A DNA stretch of 64,000 nt from an uncultured Bacillota bacterium (GCA_905205665.1 CAJLEF010000002.1:13788-77787); one strand, 5' to 3'; positions 2,381-17,474 are shown, numbered from the stretch's first letter. The notes: generated by a model not told the origin, from the sequence alone. Translations and numbers: made by a program.

Positions 2381-2612
2381 ATTTAATGAAACATAAATTA
2401 TGACCGTAATAAATCTACATATCTTTTAAATTTTAAAAATAAGTACACCAAATATTTTAGATAAATCTTAATCCACTTTTATTAAATGTAATTATTCCCG
2501 ACACCTTATGATAATCAAATAATTCTTTTTTAGATTCAGTTTGAAATCATTATTCAAAGAAACATGTTTTGCAAATATATTTAAAATGCTGAATAATAAA
2601 GATTATATTTCA

Positions 2613-2684
2613 AAAAGTACTTTCGGAGTAATTTTAAGAGTAATTTTAAAAAAGTGCATGAAAAAAGCCTTTAAATAAAGGCTT
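2613..2684. repeat. tRNA-linked composite repeat, copy C (includes the terminator of the Val-Thr-Tyr-Gln-Lys tRNA operon)
   Basis: AAAAGTACTTTCGGAGTAATTTTAAGAGTAATTTT ... CATGAAAAAAGCCTTTAAATAAAGGCTT lies immediately 3' of tRNA-Lys. Confidence 0.8.
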
Positions 2685-2697
2685 CATTAACATAAAA

Positions 2698-2773
2698 TGG
2701 TGGCTCGCCCGGGATTCGAACCCGGGACCCTTTGATTAAAAGTCAAATGCTCTACCAACTGAGCTAGCGAACC
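2698..2773 (-). tRNA. tRNA-Lys (anticodon TTT)
   Basis: The reverse complement is GGTTCGCTAGCTCAGTTGGTAGAGCATTTGACTTTTAATCAAAGGGTCCCGGGTTCGAATCCCGGGCGAGCCACCA. The anticodon loop is CTTTTAA. Confidence 0.9.
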
Positions 2774-2791
2774 GAATATCGTTATTAAAAA

Positions 2792-2867
2792 TGGCTGCCT
2801 CGGATGGACTCGAACCATCGAAATGTCAGAGTCAAAGTCTGATGCCTTACCGCTTGGCTACGAGGCA
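2792..2867 (-). tRNA. tRNA-Gln (anticodon TTG)
   Basis: The reverse complement is TGCCTCGTAGCCAAGCGGTAAGGCATCAGACTTTGACTCTGA...GGTTCGAGTCC...GCCA. The anticodon loop is CTTTGAC. Confidence 0.9.
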
Positions 2868-2880
2868 ATATTTTAAGAAA

Positions 2881-2964
2881 TGGTGGAGGGACATGGATTT
2901 GAACCATGGAACCCGAAGGAACAGATTTACAGTCTGCCGCGTTTGACCACTTCGCTATCCCTCC
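2881..2964 (-). tRNA. tRNA-Tyr (anticodon GTA), long variable arm
   Basis: The reverse complement is GGAGGGATAGCGAAGTGGTCAAACGCGGCAGACTGTAAATCTGTTCCTTCGGGTTCCATGGTTCAAATCC...CACCA. Confidence 0.9.
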
Positions 2965-2975
2965 ATAACAAGAAA

Positions 2976-3051
2976 TGGTGCCGACAGAGGGAATCGAACC
3001 CCCAACCTACTGATTACAAGTCAGTTGCGCTACCTATTACGCTATGTCGGC
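2976..3051 (-). tRNA. tRNA-Thr (anticodon TGT)
   Basis: The reverse complement is GCCGACATAGCGTAATAGGTAGCGCAACTGACTTGTAATCAGTAGG...GGTTCGATTCC...CACCA. Confidence 0.9.
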
Positions 3052-3061
3052 AAAAAAATAA

Positions 3062-3138
3062 TGGTGGGCGTTTACGGACTCGAACCGCAGACCCTCTGCT
3101 TGTAAGGCAGATGCTCTAACCAACTGAGCTAAACGCCC
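3062..3138 (-). tRNA. tRNA-Val (anticodon TAC)
   Basis: The reverse complement is GGGCGTTTAGCTCAGTTGGTTAGAGCATCTGCCTTACAAGCAGAGGGTCTGCGGTTCGAGTCC...CACCA. Confidence 0.9.
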
Positions 3139-3160
3139 TTGTCTTCAACTGACACTTAAA

Positions 3161-3189
3161 ATATTACCAAAAAGAATATCTCTTGTCAA
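3161..3189 (-). promoter_or_regulatory. sigma-A type promoter of the five-tRNA operon
   Basis: On the minus strand: TTGACA, a 17-nt spacer, then TAATAT, about 22 nt upstream of tRNA-Val. Confidence 0.6.
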
Positions 3190-3359
3190 TTGAATTTTGC
3201 ATTTTTTTTGCTTTTTTTTCATTTTGTGCCAATATCTTTAAAATATTTAATTTTTAATCCTATTTTTCCTGCTTAAAATCTATAAATTGTGATTTTGTAC
3301 ATAACTATATTTGCCTAAAAATTAAAAATTAATATCCTATAAAATCATAAAATTTTAAA

Positions 3360-3578
3360 CTATATTTTTCTAATGTTTTCAAATTCAGGTACTATATCAA
3401 ATTTATCAGCAATATTTTCCATTTCAACTTGATTACCATAGACATCTATTTTATATCTTTTAGGAAAAGATTTTTTCTGGCGTTCACAATTATCCTTTAT
3501 TATTTTTTCTAAAGTTTGATTTAAAGCTTCTCCTTCTAAATGGTAAACGTTTATATACACTGATTTAACTGCTTTCAT
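3360..3578 (-). CDS. hypothetical protein (72 aa), last gene of the racemase/ligase/AsnB operon
   Basis: Its start overlaps the upstream stop by 4 nt, which suggests translational coupling. No recognisable family. Confidence 0.4.
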   Translation of the reverse strand: MKAVKSVYINVYHLEGEALNQTLEKIIKDNCERQKKSFPKRYKIDVYGNQVEMENIADKFDIVPEFENIRKI

Positions 3579-5182
3579 AATTTTTCACCAGATAATGGTT
3601 TGTTTACTTTGGATAAAATATAATTCCCTATTTCTTCTATAATTTTATCTTCGTTCGGCCATGATAAATGACTATTTAGTTCGGGATATTTAGATAATAA
3701 ATACTCACAATAAGAAGGTGTTAATTTTTTTAAATGCGTAAGTAGTAATCTTATAATCCAAGAAAGTGTCATGCCTATATCAGATTGTCGTTTTAAAAGA
3801 ACATTCAGTTTTTGGTAAAATTCATTCATGGAATTTACATTAAAAAGTTCTGAAACATCCATAGTCATGAAATTATAACGTTTTGTCATAGCTTCCTCTT
3901 CATTTGTTAAAATGAGATGATTATACAAATCTTTATCCATATCGTTATCCCAAGTAGGATCTGTCACATAGAAGCCATCAATATCATATTTAGGATCGTT
4001 TATATATACATACCGTCTAGCGTGCCCAGCTGATGAGGCAACCACTTGTTCATTTTCACCTTTTGTATCATAAGAAATATCGACAGAAACACCATGATCT
4101 ATAGATGGTATGCCTTCTTTATCAAGTAAATCACCTAGTAAATTAGAATATCCTACACAAACCATATATTCATTATCTAAAATACTATAAAGATTTCTTG
4201 AAGCTAATAAATCCTCACTGTTTTCACGATATTGTTTATATTTTTTAGTAGTATTATAGTCATAAATAAATTTTTCAAAAGGACTTAAATTTTTAGTATT
4301 ACCTACTAACTGCCAAAGTTTCTTTTCTGATTCAAAAAAATTATCTAGAGTTATCAATTCCAAATCAAATGACGCTTTAATATTTCTTCTTAAATATTCG
4401 CTGTTTTGGAAAATTTTTTCTAAAACATTTTTTTTGTTTTTAACTTCTATTACCACAATATTTTTTTTACCAAGTTCAGCAAGTCTATCAAATATAGCTA
4501 TAGCAGATTCCATATTTTCTTCAGTCACACTAAATGTCAAATTATCATTTTGTAAATATTTTAAATTTGAAAGCTCTTCTGCAGTGACTTTATCACAGAG
4601 AGGGAAAGAAAAATTATTTGCATCTTCTAGACCTGCTAAATCCTTATAAGTATATTTTCCAAATAATTTCTTTTCGTAATTAAAAACTATTAAAGGATCA
4701 AAATTTTCTTTTAGTTCTTCGCATACCCCGTATGTATCAACTTTCTCAAGAAATGAATTTTTCAATATTTTATAATGTTCTAAAGTCAAGCAATATTTAG
4801 TAAGAGTAAGTTCTTTTAAATTTTGATTTTTTGCTAGAGCCTGAAGCAAACGTGTTGTCATAAATGCATTTGAGCCAATAATAAGAGAAGAAGCGAGATT
4901 TTGGGTAAAAAACTCTTCTAAAAAAGCATTCATTTTATCCGTATTTTTTAAGTAATAATCAGGATTAATACGTAAACGCATGTTTCCTTCAATACAAAAA
5001 GGATAATCTTCTGTGTTATAAATATTTTTCATGCAAAAATTATCATCAAATTGCAGAATTTCACTTTCTGTCAATGAGATGGCTTTTATAGATACCCTAC
5101 CTAAAAAAGAATACATCTCCTGTAAAGTATATACTTTGTATATTTCAGGTTTTGTTTCAAAATAATTTTCAATACGCTCCAT
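3575..5182 (-). CDS. hypothetical protein with a C-terminal transglutaminase-like (papain-fold Cys-His-Asp) core
   Basis: MVCVGYSNLLGDLLDKEGIP (Cys), AGHARRYVYI (His) and FYVTDPTWDND (Asp) appear in the order and spacing typical of the transglutaminase core. The N-terminal ~330 aa has no recognised family. The ATG lies 5 nt after the asnB stop and is preceded by GAAGGAG. Confidence 0.55.
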   Translation of the reverse strand: MERIENYFETKPEIYKVYTLQEMYSFLGRVSIKAISLTESEILQFDDNFCMKNIYNTEDYPFCIEGNMRLRINPDYYLKNTDKMNAFLEEFFTQNLASSLIIGSNAFMTTRLLQALAKNQNLKELTLTKYCLTLEHYKILKNSFLEKVDTYGVCEELKENFDPLIVFNYEKKLFGKYTYKDLAGLEDANNFSFPLCDKVTAEELSNLKYLQNDNLTFSVTEENMESAIAIFDRLAELGKKNIVVIEVKNKKNVLEKIFQNSEYLRRNIKASFDLELITLDNFFESEKKLWQLVGNTKNLSPFEKFIYDYNTTKKYKQYRENSEDLLASRNLYSILDNEYMVCVGYSNLLGDLLDKEGIPSIDHGVSVDISYDTKGENEQVVASSAGHARRYVYINDPKYDIDGFYVTDPTWDNDMDKDLYNHLILTNEEEAMTKRYNFMTMDVSELFNVNSMNEFYQKLNVLLKRQSDIGMTLSWIIRLLLTHLKKLTPSYCEYLLSKYPELNSHLSWPNEDKIIEEIGNYILSKVNKPLSGEKL

Positions 5183-5187
5183 TTAAA

Positions 5188-7032
5188 TTATACTCCTTCA
5201 TTAAAATACTGTTCATACCATATACAAAAGCAATAAATATTGTATATTTTTCGACCATTATTTTCTTTATTATGATAATGATTTTCTAATAAATTAAGGA
5301 TATACTCTTGATCAAAAAACTTTGAAACATAGTCTTTTTGAAAAGCTTCTTTTACCATTTTATAATATTTTTCTTCTCTCAACCATTTTGAAAAAGGCAC
5401 AGGAAAACCGCATTTTCTTCTTTTAGCCCAATCTAGAGGAATTGTTTCTTTAGCTAAATCACGAAATAAAAATTTTGTTTCTTTATTTTTTAACAAATAT
5501 TTTGATGGAATCGTTCTAGCAAAATTGAAAACATCAATATCCATAAGAGGTGTTCTTAACTCCACAGAATGTGCCATGCTCATACGATCTGCCTTCACTA
5601 AGATATCTTTTGGAAGCCAAAAATTAAAATCAATATACATTTTTTGGGTAAGAACATCTTCATCTTTTACTTTGTCATAATAAGGCTTGATGATATCAGA
5701 TATTTTCTCATCATTTTTTATAGAGTCCGCTAAAATCTTATTGGCCTCATCACTTTCCATATAGCTTCCATGCCCAATATATCTTTCATAAAAAGGTTGT
5801 CCATATAAAATTAAGGTGTTTCGCCCTGGGAAATGTGGTAAATGCTTACAGATGTTACGATTAAACTTTCTTAAAAATAAGGGCAAATGAAGGTACAAAC
5901 GTAGTAAGAAAGGATCATTATACTCATTATATCCCCCAAACATTTCATCGGCTCCTTCGCCCGCTAGAGCTACCTTCACATCTTTACATGTTAAATCACT
6001 TAAAAAATATAAAGGCACCGTAGATAAATTAGCATGAGGTTCATCCGTATGCCACTCTACTTTTGGTAAAGCATCGAAAAAATCGTCAGCGCTTACTTTT
6101 TCTCGTTTATTTTTGATTTTCAAATTTTTAGATAATTCCTTCGCATAATCGGTTTCATCAAAACCTTCATAAGAAAAACCAACTGAATAAGTTTTATCAG
6201 GTTTGGCGACACTTACCACATAAGATGAGTCTACTCCTCCAGATAAATAAGCCCCTACTTCGACATCACTTGTTGTTTGATGATAGTAAATAGAGTCTTT
6301 TAAGACATCCCTTAGTTCTTCTTTCATTTCTTCAAAACTTTTTTTCGTATTTTTACGGTCAAAGGAAAGTTCAAAATAAGGTTTAATATCTAACTTATTA
6401 TTTTTGTAATGGAAATAATGTCCGGGACGTAATTTCATAATACCTTTAAAGAAACTTTCATCTTTGACAGAATATTGGAAAATCAAATACATTTTTAACG
6501 CATCTGTATTTACTTCTTTATGATAATCTGGATGTTCTAAAATTGATTTTATTTCTGAGCCGAAAATAAAATCTCCATCTTTTTCATAATAATAAAAAGG
6601 TTTGATGCCAAAGTGATCCCTTGCTCCCACAAGTTCATGCGTTTCTAAATCATAAATCACAAAAGCAAACATACCACGTAGTTTATTAAATAAATCATCT
6701 TGCCATTCGATATAACCATTTAAAACGACTTCGGTATCTGTCTTTGTTTTAAACTTGTAGCCTTTTTCTTCTAGTTCTTCTTTTAATTTTTGATAATTAT
6801 AAATTTCTCCATTAAAAATAATAGCCTTCTTGCCATCTAAAGAAAAAATAGGTTGAGCACCGCCTTCCACATCAATAATAGATAATCTTCTTTGACCTAA
6901 AGCAATCACGTCATCTGTGAAAAATCCTTCGCCATCTGGTCCACGGTGGGCAATGACATCCCCCATTTTTTTAATAATAACATCTTTTTCTTTTTTCTTT
7001 CTTTTATCAATAAATCCTACAATTCCACACAT
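5188..7032 (-). CDS. asnB: asparagine synthetase B family glutamine-hydrolysing amidotransferase
   Basis: MCGIVGF N-terminal nucleophile Cys2, with the start set at the ATG preceded by AGGAGG. The SGGVDSS PP-loop is present, and the length is ~614 aa. Confidence 0.9.
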   Translation of the reverse strand: MCGIVGFIDKRKKKEKDVIIKKMGDVIAHRGPDGEGFFTDDVIALGQRRLSIIDVEGGAQPIFSLDGKKAIIFNGEIYNYQKLKEELEEKGYKFKTKTDTEVVLNGYIEWQDDLFNKLRGMFAFVIYDLETHELVGARDHFGIKPFYYYEKDGDFIFGSEIKSILEHPDYHKEVNTDALKMYLIFQYSVKDESFFKGIMKLRPGHYFHYKNNKLDIKPYFELSFDRKNTKKSFEEMKEELRDVLKDSIYYHQTTSDVEVGAYLSGGVDSSYVVSVAKPDKTYSVGFSYEGFDETDYAKELSKNLKIKNKREKVSADDFFDALPKVEWHTDEPHANLSTVPLYFLSDLTCKDVKVALAGEGADEMFGGYNEYNDPFLLRLYLHLPLFLRKFNRNICKHLPHFPGRNTLILYGQPFYERYIGHGSYMESDEANKILADSIKNDEKISDIIKPYYDKVKDEDVLTQKMYIDFNFWLPKDILVKADRMSMAHSVELRTPLMDIDVFNFARTIPSKYLLKNKETKFLFRDLAKETIPLDWAKRRKCGFPVPFSKWLREEKYYKMVKEAFQKDYVSKFFDQEYILNLLENHYHNKENNGRKIYNIYCFCIWYEQYFNEGV

Positions 7033-7046
7033 AAATATCTCTCCTC

Positions 7047-8258
7047 CTATGCTTTCCAATAACTATTTTGGTATTCTTTTTTATAATGCCATAATCTTTT
7101 TTTCATCATTAAAAAGCGCTTAAAATTTTTATCTTTTGGGCATTCCATAGGGCTTACCCTTTTTTTCCATAGTCTTAAAGCTTCTTTTTTAAAATCTTCA
7201 TTTGTAATATAAGTTTTAACAATATTTTTAGGGACAAATGATAGTAAACATTCTTCTTTTAAATCTCTAAAAGGAAGTTCTTCTTGCAAAATAAGATCTT
7301 TTAACATAATTTCCACTAAATTAGCCTTTAAAGGGGTTAAATAATAGCTACACCGACCTTGTCTGGCATTAATCTCTAAAACTTTAAATGTATTACTTTT
7401 TTTATCATATTTCATATCGAATTCAAAAAAGCCATTCATACCTAAAGTTTCCATAAAAGTAATAATATTTTCTTTCATATTCGAAGTGTCTACCTTAAAG
7501 GTATTAAACCCATTAATAAGACAAGCGGCATTACCAACCATCGATTTACTTCTTTCTTGAAGTCCTATCTGGGCAAAACTAATCACTTTTACTTTACCAC
7601 TTTTTGAAACGTAAACAACACTGTCAAAAAGATAAGAATCATCTCCTGGAATATATTCTTGCAAAATAAGTTTTTCTTGGTATCCAGCACTTTTAATGCG
7701 ATTAATAGTATTTAAAAGTTCTTCTTCACTTTCAATTTTATATATTTTGTTTTTACCAGGAAAACTTAAATGATTATAAGAAACAACATCCGCTGGTTTT
7801 AAAATCATAGGATACGTCATTGTTGGAATAAGACTATCTTTTGTCACATCAAAATAATATGTTATAGGAAAACTTAAAGAGGATGTTTTATAAGTCTTAT
7901 AAAATTTTTCTTTATTTGTTAATGTTTCTAATACTTTGGCAGATTGTTTAAAATAGACTAAGTTATGTTCTAATATTTTTTGATTACGGGCTAAAAATAA
8001 CGAATACGTTTCATTTGTACTAATAACTAAAACCCTATTCTCAATATTTTTTAGAGCATAACGGTTTAATATTCTAACAAATTCTTGTTCATTCCATAAA
8101 TTAGGCTCATATTCTATTGTTAAGATATTAGAAAACTTAGTAAAGGCTAATCTGTCCTTTCCTATTAAATGGGCCTTTTTATGAGTATATTCATAAGCAC
8201 AACGAGCCATATAATAAGCATTCGCGTCACTTCCTAATATTAATATCTTTGTATCCAT
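7047..8258 (-). CDS. ATP-grasp carboxylate-amine ligase, D-aspartate-ligase (Asl)-like
   Basis: ILILGSDANAYYMARCAYE at the N terminus, LQEYIPGDDS, and EINARQGRCSYY are ATP-grasp motifs of the COG3919/Asl type. The start could be 8258 or 8264; the GGAAG RBS favours 8258. Confidence 0.6.
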   Translation of the reverse strand: MDTKILILGSDANAYYMARCAYEYTHKKAHLIGKDRLAFTKFSNILTIEYEPNLWNEQEFVRILNRYALKNIENRVLVISTNETYSLFLARNQKILEHNLVYFKQSAKVLETLTNKEKFYKTYKTSSLSFPITYYFDVTKDSLIPTMTYPMILKPADVVSYNHLSFPGKNKIYKIESEEELLNTINRIKSAGYQEKLILQEYIPGDDSYLFDSVVYVSKSGKVKVISFAQIGLQERSKSMVGNAACLINGFNTFKVDTSNMKENIITFMETLGMNGFFEFDMKYDKKSNTFKVLEINARQGRCSYYLTPLKANLVEIMLKDLILQEELPFRDLKEECLLSFVPKNIVKTYITNEDFKKEALRLWKKRVSPMECPKDKNFKRFLMMKKRLWHYKKEYQNSYWKA

Positions 8259-8274
8259 AATCATCTTCCTTTTC

Positions 8275-9453
8275 TTAATATTTTATTTCTTTTATTTTAC
8301 CATCTTTTTCGTAAAGATATGTTACTCTTGGGGATATATCATTAAATAAATGATAAGCATTTTTATGTGTTCTGCCACATAGCATTTTGATAGACATATG
8401 AGGTCCAATAATCTCAACTTCGGTATGAAGAGGTATTTTTTCTTTACTATATATCATTATCATGTCCATACAGTCAGAAACTATTTTATAAAAATTGCCT
8501 TTTATCCAAACGCTTTTAAAGGCTTTAGTCACCCCATCTGCATAGCCTATTGGTAACGTTAAAATATAGCCGTCTTCTTCTACTTTGTATGTGTTATATC
8601 CCACAACTTCACCTTTTTTAACCGGTCTTACACTCATTACTTCTGAAAATAAAGTAAAGGCTTGTTTTACCCTTAAATCATTTTCTAAAATTGTTGGACT
8701 ACAATGATTTTTCTTTTGCAAATATTTAAGTTTTAACATTCTTAATTTGCCTTTAAAACTAGTATCTTTGATTCTACTTTGATTAAAACCATAAAGAACA
8801 ATACCAAGACGAATGCCTGTTGCAAAAGAAAGTTTTTCATGTTCTACTAAAGTAAGACTTCTTCCTAAATGAACGATAGGGATTTCTTTTAAATCTATTA
8901 AACTTGTAATATTTAGGAAACTTACCACTTGTTTATCATAATAAGGGTCCGTGACTCCACTGGTTGCAAAATGCGTATAAATGCCTTCTAAGACAATATT
9001 TTCATTTTGTTTTAAAGTATCATAAGCTTCTTTTAAATTTTCTTTATTCATAAAGCCAAGACGGTGCATACCCGAATCCACTTTTAAATGGACTTTAATT
9101 TTTTTAGGAAGATTTTTTAGGGAAAGCTCTTTGGCTTCTTCTAAATTTTCCAACGTAAGAGTGACATCATAGTCTAAAATATCTTCTAAATAAGTAAGAG
9201 AAATAGGCTCTAAAGAAAGAATTGGCGTTTCTTTATCATACTTACGAACTTCTTTAGCTTCTTCTAAAGAGGAAACAGCAAAATAGTTAATACCTCCCTC
9301 TTTTAAAGATTTCACTGTATAAAATCCGTGATGATAGGCGTTATTTTTAACGACTCCAATATAATACTTATAGCCCTGGTATTTCTCTTTTATGGCTATA
9401 ACATTATCTTTTAAAATATTTTCAGCAATTTTAACATAACTTTTTCTTTGCAA
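8275..9453 (-). CDS. alr: PLP-dependent alanine-racemase-family protein
   Basis: GVVKNNAYHHG supplies the PLP lysine, and PIGYADGV is an Alr signature. TTG start with AAGGA upstream. Actual substrate specificity is unknown. Confidence 0.75.
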   Translation of the reverse strand: MQRKSYVKIAENILKDNVIAIKEKYQGYKYYIGVVKNNAYHHGFYTVKSLKEGGINYFAVSSLEEAKEVRKYDKETPILSLEPISLTYLEDILDYDVTLTLENLEEAKELSLKNLPKKIKVHLKVDSGMHRLGFMNKENLKEAYDTLKQNENIVLEGIYTHFATSGVTDPYYDKQVVSFLNITSLIDLKEIPIVHLGRSLTLVEHEKLSFATGIRLGIVLYGFNQSRIKDTSFKGKLRMLKLKYLQKKNHCSPTILENDLRVKQAFTLFSEVMSVRPVKKGEVVGYNTYKVEEDGYILTLPIGYADGVTKAFKSVWIKGNFYKIVSDCMDMIMIYSKEKIPLHTEVEIIGPHMSIKMLCGRTHKNAYHLFNDISPRVTYLYEKDGKIKEIKY

Positions 9454-9517
9454 ATGACATCATCCTTTTGCAAAATTATAACACGAAAAGAAAGACAATA
9501 TGAAAAAAATGACCTTT

Positions 9518-10744
9518 CTAGTCATTTTTATGCAAAACTAAATAATATTTTTTCTTACCACGACGAATGATATTGTATTTACGCTTTTCATCTAATAAGT
9601 AATTTTCATCGTTTACAAGTGTACCATTAACACTTATGGCATTACCGCTTAAAAATTCTCTAGCTTCTCTTTTAGATGTGGCCACTTTTTCTTGAACTAA
9701 AAATTCAATAAGGGGTAACTTTTCATAATTTAAAACAGGAACTCCTTTAAAAACCATTTCAATTTCTTTATCTGTAAGATCACTTACCTTACCTGTGAAA
9801 AGACATTCCGATACTTCTTTGGCATGGAGGTATTCTTCTTCACCATGTAAATCCGTAATGATTTCTTTAGCTAATGTTTTTTGGGCTAAACGAAGTTCAG
9901 GACGGGCTAAATGTTCTTTTTCTATTTCTAAGATTTCTTCCTTACTTAAGAAAGTAAAGACTTTTAAATAACTTATAACCATTTCATCATCGGTATTGAC
10001 AAGGTATTGATATAGTTCATAGCTACTTGTTTTGTCTTTATTAAGCCATAAAGCATTGCCTTCACTTTTGCCAAATTTTTTACCCATTTTATCAACGATT
10101 AAAGGCATTGTAAAGCCATAAGCTTCTTTACCTGTTTTCTTTTTAATAAGTTCAATACCAGTGGTAATATTTCCCCATTGATCAGACCCAGCGGCTTGTA
10201 AAACACAGTTTTCATGTTCAAATAAATGAAGGAAATCATAACCTTGTAATAAGGTATAAGAAAATTCAGCATAAGTGATACCTGTTTCTAAACGTCTGGC
10301 GATAATATCTTTATTTAACATATAGTGAACATTAATATACTTACCAATATCTCTTAAAAAGCCAAGGAAGGTTACATCTTTTGTCCAATCATAATTATTA
10401 ACGATTTGGACATTACCTTTAAAGATTTCATTTACTTGTTTTTGAATGCCTTTCGTATTTTCTAAAACTTTTTCATAAGAGATGATTTCTCTTTCAGCTG
10501 TTGGTCTAGGGTCTCCAATAAGGCCAGTAGAACCACCCATTAATAAAATAGGATGATGACCATATAAAGCAAGTCTTTTGGCTGTTACTAAAGAACTATA
10601 ATGCCCTAGATGTAGGCTATCTGCAGAAGGGTCTGTTCCCCAGTAAAAAGTGATTTTTTCATTATCGAGTAAATTTTTTAAATCAGGTGTCGAAGTATCT
10701 TTAATTAAACCACGCCACATTAAATCTTCATATAAACTTTGCAT
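9518..10744 (-). CDS. tyrS: tyrosyl-tRNA synthetase
   Basis: HLGHY (HIGH) and KFGKS (KMSKS) motifs, a C-terminal S4-like domain, and a T-box upstream. Confidence 0.95.
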   Translation of the reverse strand: MQSLYEDLMWRGLIKDTSTPDLKNLLDNEKITFYWGTDPSADSLHLGHYSSLVTAKRLALYGHHPILLMGGSTGLIGDPRPTAEREIISYEKVLENTKGIQKQVNEIFKGNVQIVNNYDWTKDVTFLGFLRDIGKYINVHYMLNKDIIARRLETGITYAEFSYTLLQGYDFLHLFEHENCVLQAAGSDQWGNITTGIELIKKKTGKEAYGFTMPLIVDKMGKKFGKSEGNALWLNKDKTSSYELYQYLVNTDDEMVISYLKVFTFLSKEEILEIEKEHLARPELRLAQKTLAKEIITDLHGEEEYLHAKEVSECLFTGKVSDLTDKEIEMVFKGVPVLNYEKLPLIEFLVQEKVATSKREAREFLSGNAISVNGTLVNDENYLLDEKRKYNIIRRGKKKYYLVLHKND

Positions 10745-10764
10745 ATTTTTTTTCCTCTTTCTAA

Positions 10765-10900
10765 AATTAAAAAAATTCTACGACTAAAGGACGAGTTTAC
10801 CCCGCGGTACCACCTTTATTCATAGAATAATCTATCTTTCTTTAATTAACGCTTAATAACGATTTGACTCCACTGGTTGTAAGTCAGTATCTTCATCAAC
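10765..10900 (-). promoter_or_regulatory. T-box leader (Tyr) controlling tyrS
   Basis: The minus strand contains the conserved T-box sequence AAAGGTGGTACCGCGGGG, followed by a terminator with a T-run. A candidate specifier UAC sits in GACUUACAACC. Confidence 0.8.
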
Positions 10901-10906
10901 AAGGTT

Positions 10907-10935
10907 ATTTTAACAAATATTTTAAGGGGTTTCAA
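10907..10935 (-). promoter_or_regulatory. sigma-A type promoter of the tyrS T-box leader
   Basis: On the minus strand: TTGAAA, a 17-nt spacer, then TAAAAT. The -35 element overlaps the 3' end of mutM. Confidence 0.55.
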
Positions 10936-11755
10936 CTACTTTTTGACACGTTTCACAGTAATAAGTACTTCTGCCCCCGATAAAAGAAACTTTAATCGGT
11001 GTTCCACAGATTTTACAAGGCTGTTTAGCCATTTTATGAACCATTAAGCATTGTTGGAAACGACCAGTGACACCTAAAGAACTTGTATAACTTCGAATGG
11101 TTGTTCCACCCATTTCAATGGCTGCTTTAATAATATAATTTGCTTTATTTTTTATTTCTTCACATTCTTCTAAAGTGATTTCACTTCCTTTTTTAAAAGG
11201 TGAAATACGGGCGGCAAACAAAACTTCATTGGCATAAATATTACCAAGACCACTAATGATAGTTTGGTCAAGTAAAAGAGTTTTGATAGGCAAATTATGT
11301 TTATGAAACTTTTCATATAAATATTCTTTGGTTAAAGCTTCATCCATAGGTTCAATACCTTGTTTTTTAATTCCTTCAAATTCATTTACTTTGTCTTTTA
11401 AAACTAGTTTCATACGACCAAATTTACGCGTGTCGTGATAACGAAGAGTCGTATTATCTTCGAATGTAATCATGACATGTTCATGTTTTTCTATAGGTTC
11501 CATACTATTTTTAAGGAAATATTTTCCTTCCATTCTTAAGTGACTTAATAGAAAATATTTTTCTGTTTCAAATAGTAACCACTTACCTCTTCTTTTAATA
11601 TCTATAAAACTTTGATTTATTAAAGAAGAGCAAAAATAATCTTTATCATCTAAAAGCATTGGTTCATAGTAAACATCTACTTTTTTAATTTTTTTACCTA
11701 AAATACGTTTCTTTAAAGTATTACGAACGGTTTCTACTTCCGCAATTTCTGGCAT
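10922..11755 (-). CDS. mutM: formamidopyrimidine-DNA glycosylase
   Basis: MPEIAEVETV N terminus (catalytic Pro2) and a C-terminal CxxC...CxxC zinc finger. Confidence 0.9.
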   Translation of the reverse strand: MPEIAEVETVRNTLKKRILGKKIKKVDVYYEPMLLDDKDYFCSSLINQSFIDIKRRGKWLLFETEKYFLLSHLRMEGKYFLKNSMEPIEKHEHVMITFEDNTTLRYHDTRKFGRMKLVLKDKVNEFEGIKKQGIEPMDEALTKEYLYEKFHKHNLPIKTLLLDQTIISGLGNIYANEVLFAARISPFKKGSEITLEECEEIKNKANYIIKAAIEMGGTTIRSYTSSLGVTGRFQQCLMVHKMAKQPCKICGTPIKVSFIGGRSTYYCETCQKVVETP

Positions 11756-16655: not shown

Positions 16656-17474
16656 TCAAACCACATCTATATATATTATATTACCATCGTAATTCCACAC
16701 AGATTTCCTAGGACAAAAATCACCATTCTCTTTTAATAAAGAATATTTTCTATACATTTCACTAATGCCTCGGGAAAAATATCTTCTATCTGTACTAATT
16801 TTCACCTCACCTAATTTATTACCATTAAATACTATATTAAATTTTTCTTTATCTTTGGGTAACTTTTCTAATATCATTCTAGGAATACTAATTATTCGTG
16901 CTCTTATATCATTAGCAGTAATATTTTTTTCAATATTACTAACTAACATATTAGGTCTTTCACTTAATGTTAGAGATTCTGCGTGATAAAACTTTTGAAG
17001 TTCGTTTCTAGAAAATATAGGATCATATACAAAACCTATATTTTTTTCAATGCAAATATTAATCAAAGAATTACCATCAATTAATAAAATAGGGCGTTCT
17101 GTTTCAGAAGTAGCCGATCTTATAGCCGGCTCGCTAAACTTGGCAGTCGTAATAATAATTCCTCTCTCGCCATTTTTCATTATGCCACGATGCCTATCTA
17201 TAACATCAACACTGATAGAAGAATTAGGCTTGTATCTTTTAGCTTGAACTTTATATTTTACAGAATCACCATTCGTATCAATAATACCGTATCTTACACA
17301 TTCTAAATCTATTCCGCCATCATTTGTCCTTTTAGTAACTTTTACCTCATCTAAACCTAATTTTTCTAAAAAAGGTTTTAAAAATTCTTCAAATTCATAG
17401 CCCGTATTAAAACTTTCATAAAATTTTTTTAATATATTTTTTCTCTTTTCATTATTTAGTTCACTTATAATCAT
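16656..17474 (-). CDS. Mrr-type restriction endonuclease domain protein with an uncharacterised C-terminal domain
   Basis: YEFEEFLKPFLEKLGLDEV...NDGGIDLECV...KVQAKRY...GIIITTAKFS matches the Mrr_cat (PD-(D/E)XK) pattern. No methyltransferase gene is adjacent. Confidence 0.7.
   Translation of the reverse strand: MIISELNNEKRKNILKKFYESFNTGYEFEEFLKPFLEKLGLDEVKVTKRTNDGGIDLECVRYGIIDTNGDSVKYKVQAKRYKPNSSISVDVIDRHRGIMKNGERGIIITTAKFSEPAIRSATSETERPILLIDGNSLINICIEKNIGFVYDPIFSRNELQKFYHAESLTLSERPNMLVSNIEKNITANDIRARIISIPRMILEKLPKDKEKFNIVFNGNKLGEVKISTDRRYFSRGISEMYRKYSLLKENGDFCPRKSVWNYDGNIIYIDVV

Follow-up and report, generated by a model that had tools for sequence, protein, structure and literature searches.

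The D-Asx (D-aspartate or D-asparagine) cross-bridge pathway of peptidoglycan is known from Enterococcus faecium, which uses Aslfm and a racemase, and from Lactococcus lactis, which uses RacD, AslA and AsnH (PMC13631041). Here we describe a locus on the minus strand of a 64,000-nt stretch of DNA from an uncultured Bacillota bacterium (the whole stretch is called the window), in which positions 3360-9453, the feature under study, hold the same set of a racemase, an Asl-family ATP-grasp ligase and an AsnB-type amidotransferase, followed by two further open reading frames (ORFs). The E. faecium and L. lactis pathway was reportedly described in Bellais 2006 and Veiga 2006/2009, and the locus in the window differs from it in that the racemase belongs to the pyridoxal phosphate (PLP) fold-type III (Alr) and not to the cofactor-independent Asp/Glu-racemase type, the ligase falls in a separate clade, and the three genes sit in one tight cassette. 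The asl-racD-asnB cluster of Subdoligranulum variabile, a gut Clostridium, is likewise a three-gene cassette, with an Asl-family ligase and an AsnB of the same family (46% identity). Its racemase, however, is of the TIGR00035/RacD type and placed after the ligase, and its ligase is nearer lactic-acid-bacterial Asl (37%) than the window ligase (26%). The cassette described here is a variant of the known D-Asx cross-bridge pathway with a non-orthologous racemase. With moderate confidence, we read its three genes as a module for the synthesis of peptidoglycan precursors and the last two ORFs as one truncated accessory gene that stands outside the module. The features concerned are the following:

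8275..9453, minus strand: Alr-fold PLP racemase, here called Alr*, 392 aa, TTG start, of a specialised subfamily whose gene always directly precedes the ligase gene (Pfam and TIGR00492)
7047..8264, minus strand: Asl-family ATP-grasp ligase, 405 aa; the probable start, ATG 8258, gives 403 aa as in called homologues
5188..7032, minus strand: AsnB/AsnH-type glutamine-dependent amidotransferase, 614 aa from ATG 7032 (TIGR01536 and domains)
3575..5182, minus strand: first 535 codons of a 607-aa accessory gene (homologue comparison and structure model)
3360..3578, minus strand: the "72-aa ORF", the out-of-frame last 72 codons of the 607-aa gene (comparison with intact alleles)

An ORF check of the window returned these five minus-strand ORFs, the third as 5188-7059, with gaps of about 10, 14 and 5 nt in turn and with ATGA at 3575-3578 shared by the last pair. 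A scan of positions 2600-11000 gave no terminator-like site, where 3.3 +/- 2.2 were expected from shuffles. The original prediction, made from the window alone, had described five co-directional ORFs with small gaps and no terminator-like hairpin between them, and its coordinates, spacings and lack of terminators were all reproduced; its count of five genes was not, nor do the five make one conserved unit. That the genes share a strand is weak evidence for an operon: between 15 and 64 kb, the minus strand also carries 41 of the 45 ORFs that reach 120 aa.

The first three genes do make up a real, widely conserved module. A scan with the ligase, taking one genome per species, recovered 56 loci from uncultured gut Bacilli and Clostridia, with ligase identity down to 50%. 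Of the 52 loci with sufficient sequence, 50 have an Alr-type gene as the next gene upstream of the ligase; in the other two the ligase ORF is split, and tblastn still places alr upstream. The next gene downstream of the ligase is AsnB in 41 of 45 loci. The median gaps in these trio loci are 11 nt between alr and the ligase gene and 3 nt between the ligase gene and asnB, some Alr-ligase pairs have overlapping stop and start codons, and Alr* identity drops in step with ligase identity across the loci. Co-conservation, a test named for all five genes in the original prediction, was found for the first three and not for the fourth and fifth. Loci with lower ligase identity are arranged as follows:

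L077 (Lachnospiraceae), ligase identity 42%: M23 – S41 – Alr – ligase – AsnB – EctB-like diaminobutyrate transaminase – MurE
L078, ligase identity 40%: Alr – ligase
L079, ligase identity 34%: FemAB, then Alr – ligase
L080, ligase identity 33%: ligase – MurE – AsnB, no racemase

Particularly, in Clostridia loci (e.g., L062, 11065-16752) asnB is followed by a SpoVB/MurJ-like flippase, a second, canonical alr and an S33-type hydrolase. Class A penicillin-binding protein (PBP) genes are also among the recurring neighbours, and the neighbouring MurE, FemAB and flippase genes place the module in peptidoglycan precursor synthesis. The case for the module is made up of homology, fold, conserved catalytic residues, tight synteny and cell-wall neighbourhoods. 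Several of these loci show additional genes. At L077 (7479-10263) the trio is followed by the EctB-like diaminobutyrate-2-oxoglutarate transaminase (609 bits) and MurE, which hints that the stem peptide of this organism contains diaminobutyrate. A second AsnB paralogue (43-45% identity) flanks the trio in L048, L053 and L054, whose organisms may carry out two different amidations. Three Clostridia loci further encode, some 4 kb downstream of the trio, a Transglut_core protein of 446 aa that has a WD(N/D)...Y..(L)T..E motif in common with the 607-aa protein of the window.

Along its entire length the ligase is homologous (406 columns, 30% identity, E 3e-58) to an Asl of Latilactobacillus curvatus that is linked to racD and comes from one of the annotated lactic-acid-bacterial Asl loci that were taken from large "plasmid" records. 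The order in L. curvatus is aspS, an amino-acid racemase of the RacD type and a carboxylate-amine ligase, the arrangement described for RacD and AslA (PMC13631041). The AlphaFold2 (AF2) model of the window ligase has an ATP-grasp fold (predicted local distance difference test, pLDDT, 96.3), and its top Foldseek matches are ATP-grasp L-amino-acid ligases, with PylC second. PylC (PDB 4ffl, 4ffm) is likewise of the ATP-grasp type and links a D-amino acid, through its carboxylate, to the epsilon-amine of lysine, but it is only 13% identical, acts on free lysine in pyrrolysine synthesis and has no cell-wall context. In the E-x-N-x-R Mg/ATP motif, 122 relatives show no or almost no variation at E297, N299 and R301, and the family profile matches carbamoyl-phosphate synthetase (3e-14) and VanA. 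No curated family model covering the ligase was found in the Pfam/NCBIfam search, while the JGI annotation of its relatives reads 'D-aspartate ligase'. In a neighbour-joining tree, crude and without support values, the Alr-linked ligases form a clade of their own, apart from the Asl of L. curvatus, L. fermentum and S. variabile, and the sampled members of the sister clade have no adjacent racemase. A RacD-type gene was found neither in the window nor in any Alr-linked locus, and among the 85 fetched loci it occurs only in L074 and L076 (S. variabile); RacD-linked and Alr-linked ligases were never mixed at one locus among those examined. By these comparisons the ligase is Asl-like, as had been proposed, yet a member of a distinct clade.

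The amidotransferase, recognized from the start as being of the AsnB type, is a class II enzyme. The ORF opens at 7059, but the real start is ATG 7032, which gives the N-terminus MCGIVG with its Cys nucleophile. The protein has GATase_7 and Asn_synthase domains and an SGGVDS PP-loop, scores 502.6 bits on TIGR01536 against a cut-off of 267 bits, and is 46% identical to the AsnB of the Subdoligranulum cluster. AsnB-family enzymes are also known to amidate the meso-diaminopimelate of peptidoglycan, as do AsnB1 of L. plantarum, AsnB of B. subtilis and LtsA of C. glutamicum. These enzymes are likewise class II glutamine amidotransferases acting on a stem-peptide carboxylate, but they differ in that they are not known to be linked to an ATP-grasp ligase or a racemase.

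The racemase carries PF01168 (Ala_racemase_N, 4.9e-47) and PF00842 (Ala_racemase_C, 4e-21) and scores 219 bits on TIGR00492 against a cut-off of 168 bits. Its assignment to the PLP/Alr type is thereby borne out, and the presence of an Alr-type enzyme where the cofactor-independent Asp racemase would be expected, as noted in the window, is real and conserved across dozens of species. Numbered after the Alr of G. stearothermophilus, whose sequence as used here was checked only by the residues expected at ten known positions, Alr* retains K39, R136, H166, R219, Y265, Y284, M312, D313 and Y354; the catalytic Lys39 and Tyr265, together with Arg136, His166, Arg219, Met312, Asp313 and Tyr354, are shared by the window racemase and at least 46 of the 49 trio racemases. 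The trio racemases are changed at D171 (to G), R290 (to K), R309 (to D/E) and I352 (to N), all of which are kept in nine canonical second copies and which we take to be the "middle layer" of the Alr substrate entryway. Further changes relative to these copies are N203 to R, E355 to H/K/R and an insertion of about 25 aa. In the Clostridial loci the second alr lies 1.6 kb away and scores 382 bits on TIGR00492, against 257 bits for the Alr* there. Retention of Tyr354 speaks for a small substrate such as alanine. A dedicated role of Alr* is favoured by its remodelled entryway, by its being inherited together with the ligase and by the existence of a further, canonical alr. We also considered an entryway made more positive to admit Asp and rejected it because the net charge is not clearly changed, D171G, N203R and E355H/K/R being offset by R309D/E and R290K.

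The substrates of the module and the order of its reactions are what we infer. Alr* would make a D-amino acid, and the ligase would activate a carboxylate as an acyl-phosphate and join the D-amino acid to the stem peptide of the UDP-MurNAc-peptide precursor, where, if Asl is a guide, the side-chain amine of the third residue is the likely target. A remaining free carboxylate would then be turned into an amide by the AsnB/AsnH-type enzyme, using glutamine. A true Asl would specifically couple the beta-carboxyl of D-Asp to the epsilon-amine of the third residue of UDP-MurNAc-pentapeptide, which may hold for the ligase here; AsnB, genetically linked to Asl-family ligases, may amidate the cross-bridge D-Asp or the stem peptide. 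As for the D-amino acid, the AsnB linkage and the Asl homology favour D-Asx, and the intact alanine pocket (Tyr354) favours D-Ala or another small residue. More tentatively, we see a real possibility that a distinct clade of Asl-family ligases has gained an Alr-fold racemase of its own to supply its D-amino acid, making an undescribed side chain or cross-bridge in many uncultured gut Bacilli and Clostridia; either Alr* would be the first aspartate racemase of the alanine-racemase fold, or the ligase would add D-Ala or another small D-residue that AsnB amidates. A search of the searchable literature found no description of this racemase-ligase-amidotransferase cassette.

The two ORFs that follow asnB are a different matter. 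Almost all homologues of the 535-aa protein have a length of 598-625 aa, and one of them, P0121 (607 aa, 99% identical), reads ...KPLSGEKIMKAVKSVY..., that is, the 535-aa and 72-aa products fused. The DNA that encodes P0121 (L084, L085) carries GGTGAAAAAATTATG, with a run of six A (A6), and the window has one A fewer; this is the sole gap across 6.2 kb aligned at 98% identity. In two more distant genomes (L001, L002) the 535-aa and 72-aa parts are also contiguous and in frame. The site is the following:

3581..3585, minus strand: A5 run, A6 in intact alleles; the one-base deletion creates TGA 3575-3577 and the apparent ATGA overlap

The 4-nt "overlap" is therefore a frameshift, because the window has A5 where the intact gene of its relatives has A6. 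Judging by the aligned alleles, the 72-aa ORF is the C-terminus of the fourth gene and not a separate gene, and the translationally coupled 72-aa gene of the original prediction is a frameshift product. The same broken allele is present in other assemblies, so A5 is probably a real allele rather than a read error. A programmed frameshift or phase variation at the A-run was considered, as a -1 slip on AAA would restore the frame; we rejected it, given that the A5/A6 tract is short, that the gene is being lost in sister genomes and that further evidence was lacking, and the change is treated as a plain mutation.

The product of the 607-aa gene consists of an N-terminal beta/alpha repeat of about 290 residues, similar to leucine-rich repeats (LRR-like), a transglutaminase-like core and a helical C-terminal domain, the last part of which is taken away by the frameshift. 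No signal peptide is evident in it, and the protein appears cytoplasmic. In the AF2 model (pLDDT 90) the core matches 9crn (TglA), 4xz7 (TGase) and 3isr (cysteine protease) in Foldseek with a probability of up to 1.00, and also PeiP (8z4f). C342, H387 and D408 are invariant in 40 homologues and are matched (hhalign E 3.3e-5) to the Cys-His-Asp triad of a Transglut_core protein that Pfam recognizes. The transglutaminase Cys-His-Asp core claimed for the fourth protein was thus recovered, although the protein itself had no Pfam/NCBIfam match at E <=0.01, Transglut_core included. It shares this core fold and the aligned triad with the transglutaminase-like cysteine protease superfamily and differs from it by the added LRR-like and helical domains and by its apparently cytoplasmic location. 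Literature searches on S. pyogenes TglA gave nothing relevant. In the PADLOC defence search neither the 607-aa protein nor the racemase had a match, and the ligase had only a negligible 12-bit match to RdrB (E 0.008).

The distribution of the 607-aa gene is unlike that of the trio. In the two closest genomes (L016 and L017, about 94% DNA identity) the 2-kb segment 3218-5203 is absent and the tRNA cluster comes directly after asnB, and a third genome (L019) has only a 99-bp remnant of the accessory gene. Among the 56 trio loci, asnB is followed by the 607-aa gene in L018 alone; in L069 there is no more than a partial match to it, about 5.6 kb downstream and on the opposite strand. Conversely, none of 15 further genomes with a 607-aa homologue has alr, the ligase or asnB near it. 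The homologues in other genomes lie after engA or rpsD, or near a U32 peptidase, all of them housekeeping contexts. In L003-L009 the homologue follows engA and is itself followed by a conserved unknown 444-aa protein, a 767-aa AAA_5 ATPase, a DUF7192 protein and sometimes a serpin. By this distribution the 607-aa gene is a strain-variable, decaying passenger unrelated to the trio.

The original prediction was of a single operon of five ORFs, with a cross-linking or peptidase step added by the transglutaminase-fold protein and its 72-aa partner. The tiny gaps, the lack of a terminator-like site between the genes, the transglutaminase-like core of the fourth protein and the different Transglut_core protein about 4 kb downstream of the trio in three Clostridia loci are all congruent with such an arrangement. 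However, the 72-aa ORF is a frameshift product, the fourth gene is absent from L016 and L017 and a remnant in L019, only L018 among the 56 trio loci carries it after asnB (L069 having the partial match), and the reverse comparison gave 0 of 15. The five-ORF model is already contradicted by the comparative data, and we consider it extremely improbable. Neither the single five-gene unit nor the added cross-linking or peptidase step survived, the fourth gene being missing in the nearest genomes, frameshifted here and found elsewhere in unrelated contexts, while the types assigned to the racemase, the ligase and the amidotransferase stood. Unlikely in our view, but to be taken seriously, is an ordinary D-Asx cross-bridge with a true D-aspartate ligase and AsnH, in which alr is simply the housekeeping alanine racemase gene that by chance stands in a cell-wall operon and D-Asp comes from an unlinked racemase or a D-amino-acid transaminase. 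Alr* does pass the curated alr model and keeps K39, Y265, R136, R219 and Y354, JGI labels the relatives of the ligase 'D-aspartate ligase', and the linkage between AsnB and the ligase is also seen in the canonical cluster of Subdoligranulum. Yet the Alr-ligase pair holds across two classes, down to 34% ligase identity, the Clostridia have a second and far more canonical alr only 1.6 kb away (382 vs 257 bits), all four middle-layer entryway residues are altered in Alr* and kept in that second copy, and RacD-linked and Alr-linked ligases are unmixed at the loci examined.

It is also improbable that the module acts elsewhere than on peptidoglycan, whether by producing an amidated D-amino-acid dipeptide or other small metabolite, after the fashion of L-amino-acid ligases, or by decorating another polymer. 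The best structural matches of the ligase are indeed L-amino-acid ligases and PylC, and it lies outside all curated family models searched, but genes for MurE, FemAB, class A PBP and flippases are found repeatedly nearby, the ligase is homologous from end to end to a racD-linked Asl, and the genomic setting is a housekeeping one with no transporter or resistance gene attached. We give equally little credence to a sporulation-specific module that modifies the peptidoglycan of the cortex or germ-cell wall rather than the vegetative wall. Sporulation genes are present in the window and in related contigs, and the Clostridia gene after asnB matches the SpoVB model best; that match (150 bits), however, is far under the cut-off of 372 bits, the promoter-like site before alr resembles a housekeeping extended -10 promoter, and no sporulation gene is consistently adjacent to the trio. 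We found nothing that favours the spore cortex or coat, which the original prediction had suggested, over the vegetative wall. As for the peptidoglycan-precursor module with the accessory gene outside it, which we prefer, several points weigh against it. AsnB is not directly after the ligase in 4 of 45 loci, the carriers are all metagenome-assembled genomes, and the argument draws on the crude tree, which has no support values, and on a residue numbering whose reference was checked at ten positions only. Alr* keeps every catalytic and pocket residue of an alanine racemase and therefore could be a mere D-Ala supplier, and where a second, canonical alr exists, the second copy could just be redundant.

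The flanks of the locus carry the following further features:

9475..9504, minus strand: promoter-like site TTCATA-18-TATAAT with upstream TG, in the tyrS-alr spacer (consensus match only)
2245-2268, 2276-2302 and 2355-2381 vs 2698-2713, 2658-2684 and 2616-2648: candidate duplicated tRNA-Lys flank segments

Between the promoter-like site and alr lies the ribosome-binding site AAGGATGA. A weak hairpin, ATGAC-N7-GTCAT followed by T7 (9502-9526, minus strand), overlaps the tyrS stop codon; it was missed by the terminator scan because its stem holds only two G-C pairs, and it may partially insulate alr from tyrS transcription. At the other end, a strong promoter-like site, TTGACA-17-TAATAT with upstream TG (3161-3189, minus strand), stands directly upstream of a tRNA Val-Thr-Tyr-Gln-Lys cluster, which therefore has a promoter of its own, placed after the accessory gene. 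About 450 nt downstream of the real tRNA-Lys gene there is a 16-nt copy of its 3′ end, accompanied by a second copy of the terminator-like hairpin and by GGAGTAATTTT repeats; segment 2198-2636 is missing in the close relative L016. The arrangement is suggestive of a tRNA flank that was duplicated, or of what is left of an attachment site. The Rfam search found tRNAs only, and no T-box or riboswitch near the cluster. The window has a G+C content of about 29% and encodes GerM-like, GPR and SpoVAD proteins, so the label of spore former given to the organism is fair. A gene with an Mrr_cat restriction-endonuclease domain lies at 16656-17474, amid housekeeping and sporulation genes.

Finally, the locus offers a caution for annotation, as a 4-nt "translational coupling" overlap may be what the loss of one base has left behind. 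The chemistry of the cross-bridge sets the sensitivity of the cell to lysozyme, beta-lactams, L,D-transpeptidase routes and bacteriocins, and it decides which muropeptides the host immune system sees. The carriers of the cassette are abundant gut Firmicutes, all of them uncultured, and a conserved cassette with a non-homologous racemase in the place of RacD might reveal a new specificity in the alanine-racemase fold.

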